Assembly: GCA_017517705.1 (NCBI GenBank)
Contig: JAFWYM010000024.1
Coordinates: forward strand, 9,800 to 73,799
Direction: 5' to 3'
Length of the DNA stretch: 64,000 bases
Source of the DNA: Alistipes sp.
GTDB lineage: Bacteria; Bacteroidota; Bacteroidia; Bacteroidales; Rikenellaceae
The position numbers and the translations under genes were made by a program. Shown piece by piece: positions 8,873 through 17,022 of this stretch. How positions within the stretch are numbered: the first letter of the stretch is position 1; every line of letters starts with the position of its first letter. The notes under the pieces were generated by a model that saw nothing but the letters and a program-made list of their open reading frames with translations, was not told the origin of the DNA and did no database searches.

Positions 8873-9130
8873 AGATACTTCATTTTTAAGTAATGCAAAG
8901 TTAACGCTTTTTTGCAAAATATACACCACACAAAACGCACAAAGAGCCATCTCGTTGATTATCAGCAAATTAAAGTCCGCCCAAAACACATCATCGTAAC
9001 ACGCTGAAAATCAACGTGTTGAAAAATTAACAAAATTACAATTTATAACTCATTGATAATCAAGTATGTTTACACCGTGTCGCTGAAAAAATAGAGGGTC
9101 AAATATTTGGAGCAAAGCACCTCTATAGTG

Positions 9131-9138
9131 TAATTTTG
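9131..9138 (+). promoter_or_regulatory. Bacteroidetes -7 element for the CY-lipoprotein / rSAM-A operon
   Basis: TAATTTTG matches TAnnTTTG, 29 nt upstream of ATG 9168. Confidence 0.6.
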
Positions 9139-9167: not shown

Positions 9168-9686
9168 ATGAAAAAGACAATTATACTTATCGGTTTAGGT
9201 GCGGCCTTCGTTGCGGTATCGGCGTGGGTAGCACTTAGTGGCGGGCGTAGCGCACGTGCCGTGCGCACGAAGTTCCGCTTAGGTGGTGCGATACTTACGA
9301 TTACGAGCGCCCTCACAGCGGCAAGCTGCGAAGGAGGCATTGGGGGCTTTATAACCTCCTGCTACGACCCAGTGATGCCACCACGCAATATGGTGTATGC
9401 CGACACAAAGATCGGCACCGAGCTACGTAATGGCGACATTGTCCCCATCACCATCTACAGCGAGTTTGCATCGGAGGGGTATATCTCACTCGAAAGCATA
9501 GAGGGCAAAGAGTTGCAGAGCTTAACTATTACACTGCCCGGAGATGGTGAGCACGACACCGTAGAGTTCACCATTGCTGTGGGCGACTATCGCGGTGAGG
9601 CCAAGTTGAAATCCTCATGCCAAGAGTGGGCGGACGACAAGGAGAACATACAGAGTGGCAGTATTGACATCGTAATAGTGGATTAA
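9168..9686 (+). CDS. Hypothetical membrane protein or lipoprotein with a TSCYDP motif; putative radical SAM substrate
   Basis: N-terminal hydrophobic helix, a basic stretch (RSARAVRTKFR), a second hydrophobic stretch ending in lipobox-like AASC, then ITSCYDPVMPP; 1 nt from the rSAM gene. Confidence 0.7.
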   Translation: MKKTIILIGLGAAFVAVSAWVALSGGRSARAVRTKFRLGGAILTITSALTAASCEGGIGGFITSCYDPVMPPRNMVYADTKIGTELRNGDIVPITIYSEFASEGYISLESIEGKELQSLTITLPGDGEHDTVEFTIAVGDYRGEAKLKSSCQEWADDKENIQSGSIDIVIVD

Positions 9687-9687
9687 T

Positions 9688-10719
9688 ATGGTATGGTGGC
9701 GTAGAGATAGAGTAAAGCTTGGCGTTGCGGTATTCGAGCTGACGGATGCCTGCAATCAGGCGTGCAGGTTCTGCTACAACTACTTCAAGGGCGACGCAAG
9801 CCCCAGAGCCATAGCACCTCCCGACTACCGTCAGGCGCGCCATACGCTGAAGCAACTGCTCCGACAGGCCGAGATAGGCTCCATATCCTTCTCCGGTGGC
9901 GAACCCATGCTTATGCCCAAGGTTCACGACCTCGCACTCAAAGCGCGCTTCGGTGGTGCCAATGTCAACATACTGACAAATGGAACTCTCCTCACGGAGA
10001 ACGATATAGCCATCTTCAACGATATAGGCATAGGCAAGATGCAGATACCCATCCTTGCTGACTGTGCCACCATCCACGACAGTATCACGCAGCGCGTGGG
10101 CACGTGGGAGAGGGCCATGCGTGCGGCACGCAACGTGGCAGCAACAAAGGGCGAGTGGCTCGTACCCGTAATGATACTCAGCCGCTTGAACATAGAGCGC
10201 ATCGAGGCAACAATGGTATTATACAAGGAGCTGGGTGCAAGCCTCGTGATGGTCAACCGCTTCAACATCGGTGGTCTGGGCAAGCATCACACCGCGGAAC
10301 TAAGCCTCAGCCACGAGGAGCTGCGCGATGCCTTCCGCCGTGTCGACAAGAGTGCGGGAGAGCTTGGCATGAAGGTTCATAGCGGGGTATGTACGCCAAT
10401 GTGCATCCTCGACCCTCGGGAGTACCCCAACATTATGTTTACGCACTGCTCCACGGACTTCAGCCAGCGACCACTAACGATAAACTATCGTGGCGAGGTG
10501 CGCTTCTGCAACCACTCGCCACGCATATTGGGCAATATACACGAAGAGAGTCTCGGCAGCATCATAGAGCGCGCCAACGGCGACAGCTATTTTGCCACCA
10601 CACCCTCACGATGTGCCGACTGCAAGCTATGGGAGCGGTGCCGCGGAGGATGTCGCGCGGCAGCCGAACAGCTATACGGCACCTTCGACAGAGCCGACCC
10701 CGTAATGGATATTACGTAA
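9688..10719 (+). CDS. Radical SAM/SPASM-domain protein (rSAM-A)
   Basis: CNQACRFC (CxxxCxxC), SGGEP, LTNG; SPASM-type cysteines THCST...EVRFC and CADCKLWERCRGGC. Confidence 0.92.
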   Translation: MVWWRRDRVKLGVAVFELTDACNQACRFCYNYFKGDASPRAIAPPDYRQARHTLKQLLRQAEIGSISFSGGEPMLMPKVHDLALKARFGGANVNILTNGTLLTENDIAIFNDIGIGKMQIPILADCATIHDSITQRVGTWERAMRAARNVAATKGEWLVPVMILSRLNIERIEATMVLYKELGASLVMVNRFNIGGLGKHHTAELSLSHEELRDAFRRVDKSAGELGMKVHSGVCTPMCILDPREYPNIMFTHCSTDFSQRPLTINYRGEVRFCNHSPRILGNIHEESLGSIIERANGDSYFATTPSRCADCKLWERCRGGCRAAAEQLYGTFDRADPVMDIT

Positions 10720-10934: not shown

Positions 10935-11390
10935 ATGAAGAGGTTGATATATTTTTTAATGACGCTTCTGGGCTTTGGCGCATCGGGGTGTGCCTATCAG
11001 GCTCCTATAGATGATGTGGTTGCCGAGTATGGCTGTCCGCATGTTGAGTTCCACCTCTCGGCACGTGTCGTAGATGAGACCGGAACACCGATCAAGGGCA
11101 TCGAAGTATACTGCGATGGCATACCCTTGGGCTACGAAAACAACACCTCGGATAGCGAGGGTAACATAAACGTTGTCGATGCCTACGTATGGCCTGGGGC
11201 ACAGTTCGAGGTGGAGTTTGTCGACCCTGATGGGATGGAGAATGGTGGCGACTTCGAGACTCTCACGCTCGACATCACCGACAAGGTTGAGCAGGTAGAG
11301 GAGAGTAGCGGCAACTGGTACGGGGGTGGCTTCCGCGCTGAGCTTGGCGAGGTTACACTTCACAAAAAAGATAGTGAGGTAAACAACTAA
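10935..11390 (+). CDS. Radical SAM-associated putative lipoprotein 1 (TIGR04134-like)
   Basis: Signal peptide with lipobox ASGC; AEYGCP, RVVDETGTPIKGIEV, FVDPDGMENGGDF, C-terminal LGEVTL; paralog of the next two genes. Confidence 0.8.
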   Translation: MKRLIYFLMTLLGFGASGCAYQAPIDDVVAEYGCPHVEFHLSARVVDETGTPIKGIEVYCDGIPLGYENNTSDSEGNINVVDAYVWPGAQFEVEFVDPDGMENGGDFETLTLDITDKVEQVEESSGNWYGGGFRAELGEVTLHKKDSEVNN

Positions 11391-11403
11391 TAATAAAACG
11401 ATT

Positions 11404-11844
11404 GTGAAACGATTGATCTATTTTCTGATGGCGATGCTCGGCTTCGGTGCAGTTAGTTGTGAAGAACTTGAAGGGGGCGGTAATTTGGATGCCTATGGCA
11501 CGCCGTACTCTGTGTTTAGGGTATCGCTGCGCGTAGTCGATGGCGAGAGAAATCCCATCCCGGGCATTCAGGTATCTGCGAAAAATGACTACAACACCAA
11601 GCCCCTCGCGACAACAAACGAGGAGGGTCGCCTGGAGGGCACATATAACAGTGTTTCGACGATGAATTACATCAATTTCTTGGATACTGATGGTGAGGCC
11701 AATGGCGGCTGGTTCGAGCCTCTGTCGATGAACGTTGGCGATAAGATCGTAAAGGTTAAGGATGGCGAAGGCTGGTGTAGAGGCGAGTATGAAGTGACGC
11801 TCGGCGACGTCACCTTAGATCTAAAAGGAGGAGAGCACAAATAA
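11404..11844 (+). CDS. Radical SAM-associated putative lipoprotein 2 (TIGR04134-like)
   Basis: GTG start; lipobox AVSC; DAYGTP, RVVDGERNPIPGIQV, FLDTDGEANGGWF, LGDVTL. Confidence 0.8.
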   Translation: MKRLIYFLMAMLGFGAVSCEELEGGGNLDAYGTPYSVFRVSLRVVDGERNPIPGIQVSAKNDYNTKPLATTNEEGRLEGTYNSVSTMNYINFLDTDGEANGGWFEPLSMNVGDKIVKVKDGEGWCRGEYEVTLGDVTLDLKGGEHK

Positions 11845-11862
11845 CGAATAAACAATACAGCT

Positions 11863-12216
11863 ATGTCACTTATTGGCAAGATTTTAACACGACTATTTGC
11901 ACTCTTTGGGATGACCCTCACGTGCGTGGCGTGCTACGGCATCCCCGAGGCGGAGTTTCACCCTGAGTTTGGAGCTTCGGGGCGCGTTGTGGACCCCGAG
12001 GGTAATGGCATCGAGGGCATCGAGGTGTCGATTGAGAGATCGGTCACAACCTCCGACCAGAGTGGCTGGTTTTATATCGACGGCGACACCCCCGAGGTGC
12101 TCTTCCGCGACATCGATGGCGAGGCTCATGGCGGGGAGTTCGAGGAGCTGAGGATAGAGATAGGGACGGTGAACAACGTCGTCGAGCTCGGCGACGTGGA
12201 ACTAAAGCGCAAGTAG
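11863..12216 (+). CDS. Radical SAM-associated putative lipoprotein 3 (TIGR04134-like, short form)
   Basis: Signal peptide ending LTCVAC followed by YGIP; RVVDPEGNGIEGIEV, FRDIDGEAHGGEF, LGDVEL. Confidence 0.78.
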   Translation: MSLIGKILTRLFALFGMTLTCVACYGIPEAEFHPEFGASGRVVDPEGNGIEGIEVSIERSVTTSDQSGWFYIDGDTPEVLFRDIDGEAHGGEFEELRIEIGTVNNVVELGDVELKRK

Positions 12217-12220
12217 GTGT

Positions 12221-13297
12221 ATGGGCAAGCGATTAGGTGTGCGCCAATGGATTGCGCTCAAGCTATTCAAGAAGTTACGACAGATACGTCGAGAGGAGCA
12301 TGTGCTCAACACGCTCTTCTGGGAGTGTACGTTGCGCTGCAACCTCAAGTGCCGCCACTGTGGTAGCGACTGCACGGTAGACCCCGCGATGAAGGATATG
12401 CCTGCCAAGGATTTCTTTCGTGTCTTAGACAACGAGATTACGCCCCACGTAAACCCCAATAAGGTGCTCATCATCCTCTCGGGTGGCGAGGTTCTCGTGC
12501 GCAAGGATCTCGAGGAGATAGGCATCAACCTCTACCGTCGTGGCTATCCGTGGGGTATGGTCACAAATGGTCTCGGCCTCACGCGCGAGAGGCTCAACTC
12601 GCTCATACGCTCGGGTCTGCACTCCATAACAGTGTCGCTCGATGGCTTCGAAGAAGAGCACCTCCACATACGTCAACATCGCGATAGCTTCGCACGTGCC
12701 GTAGAGGCTGTGCGCATGATCTCGGCAGATAAGGAGCTCGCCTCGGATGTGGTCACCTGCGTGACTCCCGCCCTTATGCCTAAGCTCGCGGAGTTCAAGG
12801 AGTTTCTCTACTCGCTCGGTGTGCGTCGCTGGCGACTATTCACCATCTTTCCCGTAGGCCGTGCCGCTGCCGATCCCACGCTGCAACTCAACGACGAAGA
12901 GTTTACCGCGCTGATGCAGTTTATCGAGACAACACGCAAGGAGGGACGTATCATGGCGTCGTACGGCTGCGAGGGCTTCCTTGGTGGCTATGAGATGCGT
13001 GTGAGGACAAACCCCTTTGAGTGCTATGCGGGCGTTGGCGTGGCGTCGATACGCGTCAATGGCGACATCTCGGGATGTACGAGCGTGAGGGCCAACTTCA
13101 CGCAGGGCAACATCTACCGCGACAACTTCTGGGATGTATGGCAAAACCGCTTTGAGAAGTTCCGCAACCGCGCGTGGGCTAAGCGTGGCAAGTGCGCCGA
13201 GTGTAAGATGTGGCAGTACTGCGAAGGTAACGGCATGCACCTCTACGACGACGATGGCAACCTGCTGGTATGCCACTATCAGCGACTACGCAGATAG
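12221..13297 (+). CDS. Radical SAM/SPASM enzyme, rSAM/lipoprotein system (TIGR04133-like; rSAM-B)
   Basis: CNLKCRHC, SGGE, MVTNG; SPASM-type CYAG...GDISGC and CAECKMWQYCEGNGMH; lies directly after three lipoprotein genes. TIGR assignment is from memory, not searched. Confidence 0.88.
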   Translation: MGKRLGVRQWIALKLFKKLRQIRREEHVLNTLFWECTLRCNLKCRHCGSDCTVDPAMKDMPAKDFFRVLDNEITPHVNPNKVLIILSGGEVLVRKDLEEIGINLYRRGYPWGMVTNGLGLTRERLNSLIRSGLHSITVSLDGFEEEHLHIRQHRDSFARAVEAVRMISADKELASDVVTCVTPALMPKLAEFKEFLYSLGVRRWRLFTIFPVGRAAADPTLQLNDEEFTALMQFIETTRKEGRIMASYGCEGFLGGYEMRVRTNPFECYAGVGVASIRVNGDISGCTSVRANFTQGNIYRDNFWDVWQNRFEKFRNRAWAKRGKCAECKMWQYCEGNGMHLYDDDGNLLVCHYQRLRR

Positions 13298-13647: not shown

Positions 13648-14130
13648 ATGAAAAAGATTATGTTTTTGATGCTCGCCCTCTTCGTGGGCTTCAGCGCATC
13701 GGCACAGTCAATGCCCGACGTAAAGGTTGAGAACCAGGAGGGTAAGATTATCTCTACACGCGACTTGGTGGATGGCACACCTATGATCATCTCATTCTGG
13801 TCGACAACGTGCAAGCCCTGCATCATGGAGCTTAACGCCATCAACGACAACCTCTACGACTGGCTCGAGGAGGTAGACATGAAGGTTGTTGCCGTATCTG
13901 TTGACGATGCACGTGCCATCAGCCGTGCCCGCGCGATGACACAGGGTCAGGGCTGGGACGACTATACATGTATCTACGACAAGAACCAGGACTTCAAGCG
14001 CGCCATGAACGTGAGCCTCACGCCCCACACCTTCATCGTTGACGGCAAGGGTAACGTGGTATACTCTCACTCGGGCTACACTCCCGGTAGCGAGCAGGAG
14101 CTCTTTGAGAAGATCAAGGCGTTGAAATAG
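13648..14130 (+). CDS. Exported TlpA/AhpC-TSA-like thioredoxin-fold disulfide reductase
   Basis: Signal peptide (ASA-Q), SFWSTTCKPC (CxxC), cis-Pro region LTPHTFIVD. Confidence 0.9.
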   Translation: MKKIMFLMLALFVGFSASAQSMPDVKVENQEGKIISTRDLVDGTPMIISFWSTTCKPCIMELNAINDNLYDWLEEVDMKVVAVSVDDARAISRARAMTQGQGWDDYTCIYDKNQDFKRAMNVSLTPHTFIVDGKGNVVYSHSGYTPGSEQELFEKIKALK

Positions 14131-14204
14131 TTGCAATGCGAGCAGATGTGGCAGCCGAGTGTTGCCACCTCTGCTTTGAACATTAATCGAAAAAACTTTA
14201 CGGA

Positions 14205-15905
14205 ATGAAGAAATTTTTACTCACATTTAGCATAGTTGTTGCATCTATGTTCGCCGCCGAGGAGGCTGCAGCGCAGATCAAGGCCGGCGAGGGTCAGGTG
14301 TCGATATCGTTGGAGAGTAACAATATCTTGTACTTCAACGACAAGAACCTCATAGAGTTCAACAGCAAAAACGAGCGCGAGAAGCCCTTTGGATCTATCG
14401 ACTACCTAAAGGTTGACTACTCGAAGGGACGCTTCTCGGCAGGTGTGCAGATTGACGGTTACCTGCCCTCACTCAGCGGTTACGACATCACCGAGTACCA
14501 AAAATCGCAGCTTCAGGGCTTTGGCGATAAGGCTACGCCCGTAACGGCATTCTTCACCAAGTATATCCAGTGGGAGGATCAGAACTGGGGTGTGCGCCTT
14601 GGCGATATATACGACCAGTTTGGCAATGGACTCATCTTCCGTGCATACGAGGAGCGCGCCTTGGCCTTCAACAATGCGTTGGCAGGTGCCCGCGCATACT
14701 ACAACCTCAACAACTATTTTAACGTGAAGGTTGTTGCCGGTATGCCTCGCTTGTACGATATGCGCGTACCCAACTGGATCTATGGTGCCGACCTCTCGCT
14801 CTCGCTCTCGGATATCATCGGCTGGAACAATGGCTTGGTGTCGGTTGAGGGTAGCTACGTGGGTCGCAACCAGAAAGATGCAACAAAGTTGGGATTGGAG
14901 AGCGACTACCTCAATATGCTCTCTGGCCGCCTAAACTTCGAGACTGCAGGTTTCACCTTCCGTGGTGAGTATGTGGCAAAGTTGAACGAGGATATCCACA
15001 ATCGCATGTGGCCGGCAAGCAAGGGTCACGTGGCACACGTCGACCTCGGCTACAACTACAAGCGTTTCTCAGCCTCTGCCACATTCCGCTATCAGAAGAA
15101 CATGAACACCCCGATATTGGTCTCGATGAATAACCTCTATGGCGGTAATGTTATGAGCTACATTCCGTTGCTCACACGCCAGCATACATATATGCTTGCT
15201 AACCTCAATCCCTACCGTGGCACTACGGTATTTACCGCGGGTGAGATTGGCGGTCAGGCCGACGTCTACTACTCGTTGCGCAACAAGAAGGCTCGTGGCA
15301 AGTATTGGAACTTCCACGCCAACATCTCTGTGTTTAACACCATAAAGCACAAGATGAATGGTAAAGGCAAAACGATTGATGGCCGTAATGCCTGGATCGA
15401 CTTCAACTTCGATGTTGAGCGACAGTGGAACAAGAGCCTCAAGACAACATTCCTCTACTCATTCCAGCGTTGGGACGAGTCTCTCAACCACTGGGACTCG
15501 GAGGCGATCTCTGCAGAGTATTGCGCTTCGCACATCTTCGTGGGCGATGTAACATATAAGTTTAACAAGAAGCACTCGTTGCGTGTCGAGGCTCAGTACC
15601 TTGCCTCTGACGACTACGAGGGCGACTGGGTAGCAGGCTTGGTAGAGTATAACTTTGCACCTATGTTCAGTTTCTACGTTAGCGATATGTGGAACTGCGA
15701 AAAGATGGAGGCGAACTACAACTCTAACACCGACAAGAACTACCTACTCCACTACTATCAGGTGGGTATGACATTCACACACAGCCACTACAGAGCACAG
15801 TTGGCATACGGTCGTAATCGTGCCGGTTACGTATGTTCGGGAGGTGCATGTCGCTACCAGCCCGCATATACGGGTGTAAACCTTGCGCTAACTATTACAT
15901 TCTAA
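14205..15905 (+). CDS. Outer-membrane beta-barrel protein (DUF6029-like) with a C-terminal CSGGAC motif
   Basis: Signal peptide, alternating amphipathic strands, terminal Phe (NLALTITF), GYVCSGGACRYQP near the C-terminus. Family name from memory. Confidence 0.75.
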   Translation: MKKFLLTFSIVVASMFAAEEAAAQIKAGEGQVSISLESNNILYFNDKNLIEFNSKNEREKPFGSIDYLKVDYSKGRFSAGVQIDGYLPSLSGYDITEYQKSQLQGFGDKATPVTAFFTKYIQWEDQNWGVRLGDIYDQFGNGLIFRAYEERALAFNNALAGARAYYNLNNYFNVKVVAGMPRLYDMRVPNWIYGADLSLSLSDIIGWNNGLVSVEGSYVGRNQKDATKLGLESDYLNMLSGRLNFETAGFTFRGEYVAKLNEDIHNRMWPASKGHVAHVDLGYNYKRFSASATFRYQKNMNTPILVSMNNLYGGNVMSYIPLLTRQHTYMLANLNPYRGTTVFTAGEIGGQADVYYSLRNKKARGKYWNFHANISVFNTIKHKMNGKGKTIDGRNAWIDFNFDVERQWNKSLKTTFLYSFQRWDESLNHWDSEAISAEYCASHIFVGDVTYKFNKKHSLRVEAQYLASDDYEGDWVAGLVEYNFAPMFSFYVSDMWNCEKMEANYNSNTDKNYLLHYYQVGMTFTHSHYRAQLAYGRNRAGYVCSGGACRYQPAYTGVNLALTITF

Positions 15906-15933
15906 CGAACAATAATTTAACCTGATTATAACA

Positions 15934-17022
15934 ATGAAAATCACAAAGTTTTTGGCGCTTATATGCGCTATGGCAACCCTCTTTGTTGGTTGCGAGGGTA
16001 ACGGCGGTGACGAGAACTCAGCCACAGGCAATGCGGTACTTACCGCCGATAAGGATGTTGCCGTTATGGGCGAGCCCATCACCTTCACCGTGACAAGCGA
16101 GGGTGCGGATGTTACTGCCGAGGCTAAGATATACAACAAGGCAACATACAAGGAGGTGAGCAACCCTTTCGTGAGTGATGTAGATGGTAAGTATGAGTTC
16201 TATGCCGTATATGGCACGTCTATTACGAAGAGCATCGAAATCTCTGTTGTACCCTCAATCCCCGTACTCCCTGAGGATGAGGAGCCCACAAATACGACAT
16301 TCAACCACCGCATTCTCTTGGTTGACCACACGGGTACGAAGTGTGGCTATTGCCCACAGATGATGGCTGCACTCCGCAAGGTTGCTGCCGACGACAATTA
16401 TCACGACAAATTCTACGAGGCTATGGCGCACACCTACAATAGCGACGACCCCTCGTGGTCGCGCTCTGCAGAGGTTGTCACATCGCACTATGGTAGCCTT
16501 ATTAATGGTTATCCCTCGCTCACATTCAACTTCTACCACCCTATTCCGGGCGAGAGAAATGACAAGAGCATCAAGTTGCAGATCGACGCATTGTGGAAGG
16601 CTGATGGTGCCGATGCAGGTGTGATGGCAGCCGCGACAGGTGGCAATACCATGGTAGCTGTGAAGGCCCAGGTTAAGGCAAAGGTAGCCGGCGACTATCG
16701 TGTAACAGCTTGGCTGTTGGAGGATAATATCTATGCGCAGCAAGCTGGCACTACAGACGAGTCATACTACACACATAACAACTCTATCCGCCATATTGCC
16801 ATATCTAATCCTATCACAGGCTTCGACCTCGGCACCATCGAGGCCGGTGCAACAGCCGAGAAGGAGATGGCCTTGGAGATTCAGAGCCTAAAGTGGGCAA
16901 ACGAGAACCTCAAGGTTATGGTTATCGCCACGGTATACAATAGCAGCACCAAAAATTATGACGTAGCGAACATCGCCATCTGCCCCATCAACGGCTCGGT
17001 TAAGTACGACTACAAGAAGTAA
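15934..17022 (+). CDS. Omp28-related thioredoxin-like outer-membrane lipoprotein 1
   Basis: Lipobox FVGC; ILLVDHTGTKCGYCP, GYPS cis-Pro, WLLEDNI, HNNSIR. Confidence 0.85.
   Translation: MKITKFLALICAMATLFVGCEGNGGDENSATGNAVLTADKDVAVMGEPITFTVTSEGADVTAEAKIYNKATYKEVSNPFVSDVDGKYEFYAVYGTSITKSIEISVVPSIPVLPEDEEPTNTTFNHRILLVDHTGTKCGYCPQMMAALRKVAADDNYHDKFYEAMAHTYNSDDPSWSRSAEVVTSHYGSLINGYPSLTFNFYHPIPGERNDKSIKLQIDALWKADGADAGVMAAATGGNTMVAVKAQVKAKVAGDYRVTAWLLEDNIYAQQAGTTDESYYTHNNSIRHIAISNPITGFDLGTIEAGATAEKEMALEIQSLKWANENLKVMVIATVYNSSTKNYDVANIAICPINGSVKYDYKK

Follow-up and report, generated by a model that had tools for sequence, protein, structure and literature searches.

The question raised by this locus is what a radical S-adenosylmethionine (SAM) enzyme that fits no characterised family acts on, and whether the putative lipoprotein encoded one base upstream is its substrate. 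The locus lies in an Alistipes sp. contig (JAFWYM010000024.1), of which a stretch of 64,000 nucleotides, here called the window, was analysed; the locus comprises the gene of a 172-residue protein, hereafter the partner, and that of the radical SAM/SPASM enzyme rSAM-A. A preliminary description of the sequence had proposed that rSAM-A acts on a Cys-Tyr (CY) pair of the partner. Our analysis speaks for this proposal: with a probability of roughly 0.6, the partner is a protein substrate of rSAM-A, its CY dyad being modified before export under the guidance of an N-terminal leader. We favour an enzyme-substrate pair because CY motifs are repeated, partner paralogs stand in tandem and enzyme and partner strictly co-occur. 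The features of the two genes are the following:

9168..9686, + strand: partner gene, 172 amino acids (aa), with leader, putative lipoprotein signal peptide, CY motif and beta-sandwich domain (open reading frame, family alignment and AlphaFold2 (AF2) model)
9171..9278, + strand: leader, the N-terminal extension of residues 2-37, in which hydrophobic helix 1 precedes the basic GGRSARAVRTKFR segment; best conserved stretch in the partner family
9279..9329, + strand: putative signal-peptide hydrophobic region (residues 38-53) and lipobox Cys54 (TAAS-C), Cys54 being invariant in the partner alignment A1
9357..9380, + strand: proposed modification site S64-C65-Y66-D67-P68-V-M-P; family motif from the motif tally, [VTI]-[ST]-C-Y-[DE]-P-[AV]-P-P
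9384..9677, + strand: C-terminal beta-sandwich domain, residues 73-170 (AF2 predicted local distance difference test (pLDDT) about 95)
9688..10719, + strand: rSAM-A, radical SAM/SPASM enzyme of 343 aa without a RiPP recognition element (RRE; RiPP, a ribosomally made peptide with post-translational modifications) (PF04055, PF13186)
9751..9774, + strand: CxxxCxxC radical SAM cluster motif (C22, C26, C29), invariant in the enzyme alignment A2
10390..10653, + strand: SPASM region with eight invariant Cys (C235, C239, C254, C274, C309, C312, C318, C322) in alignment A2

The two-gene module and its distribution

Translation of the open reading frame, which starts with MKKTI, agrees with the layout first described for the partner: a hydrophobic helix (residues 4-24, mean hydropathy 2.16) is followed by the GGRSARAVRTKFR segment with five Lys/Arg, a second hydrophobic segment, Cys54 (codon 9327-9329), which opens the run CEGG, and, eleven residues past it, Cys65 of C-Y-D-P (9360-9371) in the context TSC65YDPVMPP. 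The single base between the partner stop codon (TAA, 9684-9686) and the ATG of rSAM-A at 9688 was likewise found as described, and so was every further detail of the description that was compared with the sequence. By sequence, RTKFR-LGGAILTITSALTAAS-C54 fits the n-region/h-region/lipobox pattern of a lipoprotein signal. The label of a "double signal" given to the protein needs amending: two hydrophobic segments are present, but they are better described as a leader extension fused to what has the layout of an ordinary lipoprotein signal peptide. The AF2 model places helices at residues 2-23 and 29-52 and the CY site in a low-confidence linker (pLDDT 42-58) between the signal peptide and the beta-sandwich, and this linker is probably flexible. 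Foldseek with the C-terminal domain returned only generic Ig/macroglobulin-like sandwiches and hence no functional clue, none of the Pfam and NCBIfam models matched the partner, and a PDB sequence search with the partner profile gave nothing significant.

In A1, an alignment of 23 partner clusters from a word-indexed search, conservation is highest over the first 45 residues of the protein, with A13, F14, V17, S18, W20, V21, S24, S28, A29, A31, R33, K35 and F36 invariant; Cys65 and Tyr66 are invariant as well, D67 and P68 are at least 90% conserved, and several members carry a second CYD(P) copy. Across the branches the leader consists of an aromatic/hydrophobic helix, [ST]-G-G, 3-4 residues, V-[KR]-x-K-x-x-L-G and then a hydrophobic stretch, K35 remaining invariant and G26/G39 near-invariant in all of them, and it is homologous between branches whose enzymes share only 33-41% identity. 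The conservation of CY and of a K-x-x-L-G-G leader beside rSAM-A homologs, proposed earlier as a check, thus extends down to this level of enzyme identity and over many Bacteroidales families. The conserved elements of the module can be summarised as an N-terminal region of roughly 50 residues and at least one [ST]-C-Y-[DE]-P just behind the lipobox Cys or signal-peptidase site.

An iterated leader-only profile, built without the CY columns and applied to the fetched loci only, recovered 93 distinct proteins in 88 loci, and CY lies downstream of the leader in 92 of the 93, the lone exception being cut by a contig end. CY occurs within 40 aa of the leader end in 84/93 leader-bearing open reading frames vs 4.6% of background ones, so that in these sequences the leader-CY pattern is far beyond chance. 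A hidden Markov model (HMM) of the N-terminal module, run against 1.84 billion representative proteins, matched 915 clusters (50% identity) at E<=1e-3 and 445 at E<=1e-10, a count that is partly circular since this profile, unlike the leader-only control, included the CY columns. Among its best 148 matches 146 contain CY, the other two resembling broken fragments, and in 137 of these 146 representatives there is, upstream of the first CY at a median distance of 8 aa, a Cys with a small residue before it; a few family members have A-x-A-like signal peptidase I sites in place of the lipobox.

Two further properties of the family bear on the role of its parts. Helix 1 is membrane-like in the branch of the window and in one distant branch, and in the Dysgonomonas/Prevotella branch it is amphipathic with Arg (F-x-x-L-F-R-L-F-S-F-L-A-D-K-T), which argues for a recognition element over an obligatory transmembrane segment. 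The part behind the motif is swapped between beta-sandwich, TonB C-terminal domain (103 and 40.5 bits), SusC-like N-terminal domain and short acidic tails. The putative substrates are envelope proteins of 72-388 aa. Three loci (L083:2221-4008, L084:1375-2846, L090:2304-4035) hold arrays of five tandem short genes (50-130 aa), each with a signal-like N-terminus and 1-3 C-Y motifs split by low-complexity polar sequence; these arrays are the most RiPP-like form of the family. A match of one distant partner to a chryseobasin-related RiPP model (20.8 bits vs cutoff 40) was dismissed, as it covers the hydrophobic signal region only.

The enzyme matches only the generic Radical_SAM and SPASM models of Pfam (PF04055, 65 bits, cutoff 29.5; PF13186, 25.8 bits, cutoff 21.5). 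Its CxxxCxxC motif and its eight C-terminal Cys are invariant down to 38% identity in A2, and an N-terminal RRE is absent, the radical SAM motif beginning at residue 22. Its C-terminal end CADCKLWERCRGGC contains C309ADC312KLWERC318RGGC322, that is, C309-x2-C312-x5-C318-x3-C322. The end of the second radical SAM enzyme of the window, rSAM-B (12221-13297), is CAECKMWQYCEGNG; from this difference the preliminary description had separated the two enzymes. rSAM-B reaches 586 bits on TIGR04133 vs 45.7 bits for rSAM-A (cutoff 425), so to judge by the scores the two are indeed of different families. None of the NCBIfam models reached its cutoff with rSAM-A. The best scores were those of GeoRSP (TIGR04303), with 94.2 bits vs cutoff 400, and PqqE (TIGR02109), with 91.4 vs 381, and the Dysgonomonas homolog of rSAM-A had 85.4 bits on the GeoRSP model (cutoff 400); thioether models gave 44.8 bits (SkfB, cutoff 300) and 54.3 bits (StsB, cutoff 625), and PapB was not among the 25 families listed for rSAM-A. 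The enzyme is thus placed outside the known cofactor and RiPP families, in line with the earlier failure to assign the pair. Neither of the two outcomes that the preliminary description would have taken as refuting its proposal was thus obtained. The nearest solved structures, by sequence profile and fold, are SkfB and, second, PqqE, both of them distant and both enzymes that modify peptides. SkfB is a thioether synthase and PqqE forms a Glu-Tyr C-C bond.

Enzyme and partner were found to share their distribution. Among 151 Rikenellaceae genomes, 13 have both and 138 lack both; a match to the A1 partner profile occurs in 10 genomes, which are the very ones with a close rSAM-A, 3 more hold a distant pair, and in 13/13 rSAM-A loci a motif-bearing partner gene is adjacent. 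The genome of the window itself has one enzyme and one leader-bearing gene. Scanning the enzyme alignment against 185,579 species genomes gave 80 loci. The closest public ones are in Alistipes metagenome-assembled genomes (MAGs; 80% rSAM protein identity), homologs at 59-80% identity occur in Alistipes, Tidjanibacter, Coprenecus and Cryptobacteroides, and those at 33-41% in Prevotella, Dysgonomonas gadei ATCC BAA-286, Paludibacter, Microbacter, Odoribacter, Prolixibacteraceae and others. In nearly all loci 1-5 tandem leader-homologous genes, each with 1-4 C-Y motifs, stand beside the enzyme gene, usually upstream and sometimes downstream. A leader-bearing gene adjoins the enzyme in 88-91 of 93 loci; the remainder lie at contig ends or, in Odoribacter, have a divergent leader, CY being present all the same. 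Since all-against-all clustering of open reading frames over the 80 loci found no other conserved neighbour (protease, transporter or RRE), the module, as judged from gene neighbourhoods, is one of two components only.

At the level of the order Bacteroidales the enzyme is present in 24/301 sampled species (about 8%) and 21/209 genera. Four module loci (L079, L088, L091, L093) come from MAGs labelled Rickettsiales, Hyphomicrobiales or Leptospiraceae, and are either mis-binned Bacteroidota contigs or a spread of the module beyond the phylum. No Pfam or NCBIfam family covers either protein past the generic enzyme models, the cultured Dysgonomonas member included, and full-text searching of the literature found no description of the family. 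The system would be a maturase of the radical SAM/SPASM type whose substrate family, motif and leader arrangement are all new.

Proposed maturation and the chemistry of the Cys-Tyr site

In the scheme that we propose, RRE-less rSAM-A would bind, in the cytoplasm, the N-terminal extension together with the signal-peptide n-region, which would act as leader through a consensus of about S-x-L-x-x-x-[ST]-G-G-x3-4-V-[KR]-x-K-x-x-L-G. The flexible Cys-Tyr dyad would then be modified by 5'-deoxyadenosyl radical chemistry with the participation of two auxiliary Fe-S clusters. Sec export, lipidation at Cys54 and cleavage by signal peptidase II would follow, so that the leader leaves with the signal peptide and the mature lipoprotein carries its modified CY site about 11 residues from the lipid anchor. 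Removal of the leader by the general secretion machinery would explain why the module has no protease or exporter gene. Taken as a whole, this would be an undescribed type of protein maturation in Bacteroidales: a RiPP-style leader fused before a Sec/lipoprotein signal, a signal peptidase doubling as leader peptidase, and a dedicated SPASM enzyme installing a new modification based on Cys-Tyr, such as a thioether ring between adjacent residues or a link from Cys to Tyr, beside the membrane anchor of diverse envelope proteins, TonB-C-terminal-domain proteins among them. For this more specific picture we would offer somewhat less than even odds. One precedent for SPASM enzymes at work on whole proteins is anaerobic sulfatase maturase, whose target is a Cys of exported sulfatases before their secretion. 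The CrpC/CrpA system provides another case of a SPASM enzyme modifying a whole protein (PMC13692751).

Our first guess for the chemistry, a tentative one that is less likely than not to be right, is that within the molecule a thioether joins the sulfur of Cys65 to Tyr66 or to a carbon close by, with a mass change of -2 Da; this is preferred because the Cys is invariant and SkfB is the closest relative. Besides the partial circularity of the protein-wide count, several points weigh against our interpretation. Both the signal-peptide cleavage and the lipidation of the partner are predictions, and helix 1, with its hydropathy of 2.16, is hydrophobic enough for a true membrane helix, a hairpin topology being possible. 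CY is followed by varying residues (D, E, A, K, V), hence no acceptor beyond Tyr is defined. In thioether synthases of the CteB type one auxiliary-cluster site may be left free for the Cys of the substrate, and set against this the conservation of all eight SPASM Cys in rSAM-A weakly favours a non-thioether chemistry.

The conserved SPASM Cys also fit the alternative that survives best, in which rSAM-A acts on the same partner and forms a C-C or C-O crosslink at the Tyr ring, as PqqE, RrrB or cyclophane-type enzymes do (e.g. from the ring to the beta-carbon two positions on), the Cys serving for recognition or cluster contact only. PqqE is the second-best family and structure match to rSAM-A, the Tyr of the motif is invariant, and at position +2 after it stands P, V, T, M or I, each a residue with beta-hydrogens. 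However, known cyclophane or PqqE chemistry gives no role to an invariant Cys directly before the Tyr, and rSAM-A falls far short of the cutoffs of the HxsC and PqqE models; we regard such a crosslink as rather unlikely. Less probable still is the oxidation of Cys65 to formylglycine, which would place an aldehyde near the lipid anchor. Anaerobic sulfatase maturase does appear among the structure matches of rSAM-A, is itself a SPASM enzyme and targets Cys in exported proteins, but its model TIGR03942 gives rSAM-A 42.4 bits vs cutoff 349, the sulfatase motif C/S-x-P/A-x-R is absent from the partner, and the invariant Tyr would be left unexplained.

Transcription and the neighbouring lipoprotein system

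Two features flank the module:

9106..9138, + strand: Bacteroidetes-type promoter consensus TTTG-N21-TAATTTTG, full consensus, about 30 nt 5' of the partner ATG
10935..13297, + strand: three TIGR04134 lipoprotein genes and the TIGR04133 gene rSAM-B (NCBIfam), context outside the module

The promoter consensus has 6 matches in the window vs 0.38 expected, and since a full copy sits about 30 nt before ATG 9168, the long N-terminus of the partner is very probably translated. A GTG start at V32 (9261), which would yield a canonical lipoprotein signal without helix 1, was considered and rejected as the main form because residues 1-31 are the best conserved, the extension is homologous in distant branches and the promoter consensus lies just 5' of ATG 9168. 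With this promoter, and with no terminator-like site found on the + strand between 8900 and 13800, the partner, rSAM-A and the TIGR04134/TIGR04133 genes may form one transcription unit starting just before ATG 9168.

The three genes at 10935-12216 belong to TIGR04134, named "radical SAM-associated putative lipoproteins". TIGR04134 genes and rSAM-B are interleaved with the partner/rSAM-A pair in about 32 Alistipes loci. The order seen most often there is lipoproteins, partner, rSAM-A, rSAM-B, vs partner, rSAM-A, lipoproteins, rSAM-B in the window. No TIGR04133/4 genes accompany the pair in Tidjanibacter or in any of the distant taxa. From this distribution the two systems are, as far as gene order tells, separable yet recurrently linked. 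The order of these genes varies by species in the Alistipes loci L014-L067 (with l for lipoprotein, P for partner, RA and RB for the enzymes and x for another gene: l..l-P-RA-RB, P-RA-l..l-RB, l-P-RA-x-l..l-RB), yet all variants adjoin ispG on the opposite strand, which suggests repeated rearrangement inside one island.

The interleaving lends some appeal to the idea that the partner is a membrane-anchored accessory or scaffold, while rSAM-A acts on other proteins, such as the TIGR04134 lipoproteins, one paralog type of which (LTCVACYG) also contains C-Y, or makes a small-molecule cofactor. Against this stand the solitary pairs of Tidjanibacter and the distant taxa, and substrates, not scaffolds, are what typically comes with tandem paralogs, short motifs in several copies and C-terminal domains that can be exchanged; we consider a scaffold role as improbable as the formylglycine one. 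The least likely of the explanations, that rSAM-A is a splicease-type enzyme excising a tyramine equivalent at the Tyr, takes its appeal from radical SAM spliceases, whose targets are Tyr residues of peptides and proteins and some of which lack an RRE (PMC11414181), and from the invariant Y-G of the neighbouring lipoproteins, and is disfavoured because spliceases act at X-Y-G, whereas in the partner family D or E follows the Tyr and Gly is not among the listed +1 residues, which cover 135/148 motifs, and because rSAM-A scores 39.9 bits on TIGR04103 (nif11-class maturase 3) vs 95.9 for rSAM-B.

For rSAM-B itself the case differs. The TIGR04134 lipoproteins of the window keep an invariant Y-G 10-15 residues past the lipobox Cys (AEYGCP, DAYGTP, ACYGIP), and since spliceases act at X-Y-G and rSAM-B has the higher TIGR04103 score, rSAM-B may be a splicease-like enzyme acting on these lipoproteins. 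The LTCVACYG paralog, in which the signal LTRLFALFGMTLTC is followed by VACYG, holds both C-Y and Y-G (window 11863-12216; L019:2596-2952, L021:2625-3020, L023:3063-3419, and others). It is always the last lipoprotein gene of its array, directly 5' of the partner/rSAM-A pair or of rSAM-B, and could be a substrate of both enzymes. Further downstream, at 13648-17022, an envelope thiol-redox set adjoins the two Cys-related radical SAM systems: one operon with genes for a thioredoxin of the TlpA/ResA type, a DUF6029 protein (493 bits) and a lipoprotein resembling Omp28, one region of which is weakly thioredoxin-like.

Much new peptide chemistry comes from radical SAM/SPASM enzymes, whose known substrates are for the most part short secreted peptides that have proteases and exporters of their own. 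The module stands out in that it has two genes only and is found in Bacteroidales of many families, among them gut Alistipes and the cultured Dysgonomonas gadei, with at least 915 substrate clusters at 50% identity, and that it would, in our reading, target envelope proteins of full size by way of a leader that is part of the secretion signal. If the reading is true, it adds a new modification motif (C-Y) and a new coupling of modification to export, and gives an entry point to the neighbouring, long-uncharacterised TIGR04133/4 lipoprotein system. The short motif and portable leader could also serve as a protein-engineering tag.

Comparison with known systems

One close parallel is the neighbouring TIGR04133/TIGR04134 system. 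Here, too, a SPASM radical SAM enzyme is encoded beside lipoproteins with a conserved Tyr motif 10-15 residues past the lipid-anchor Cys, and this system is likewise Bacteroidales-specific, uncharacterised and often part of one shared gene array in Alistipes. The motif, however, is x-Y-G-x-P in TIGR04134 and C-Y-[DE]-P in the partner, and TIGR04134 proteins lack the conserved N-terminal extension. The possibility that the partner is a diverged TIGR04134 lipoprotein was rejected: it has no match to the HMM at E<=0.01 (cutoff 39.8 bits) and Y-D, not Y-G. An hhalign comparison of the two gave 35% probability over the signal peptide only, with no homology beyond.

With SkfB, AlbA, CteB, PapB, QhpD and CrpC the module shares the radical SAM and SPASM/twitch architecture and a Cys-containing substrate encoded alongside. 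Sactipeptide and ranthipeptide synthases differ in that their family models score far below cutoff with rSAM-A, which has no RRE, and in that their substrates have a Cys-rich core, whereas here a single Cys-Tyr dyad lies in an exported protein whose leader is fused to the signal peptide. PqqE/PqqA, the second-best match in both sequence and structure, resembles the module in that the substrate residue is a Tyr, but the rSAM-A loci lack a PqqD, PqqB and PqqC context and the partner lacks the E-x3-Y motif. Anaerobic sulfatase maturase is alike in being a cytoplasmic SPASM enzyme that takes a Cys in a protein still bearing its secretion signal and needs no dedicated protease or transporter; its target motif is another one, and sulfatases have no counterpart to the specific leader extension of the partner.

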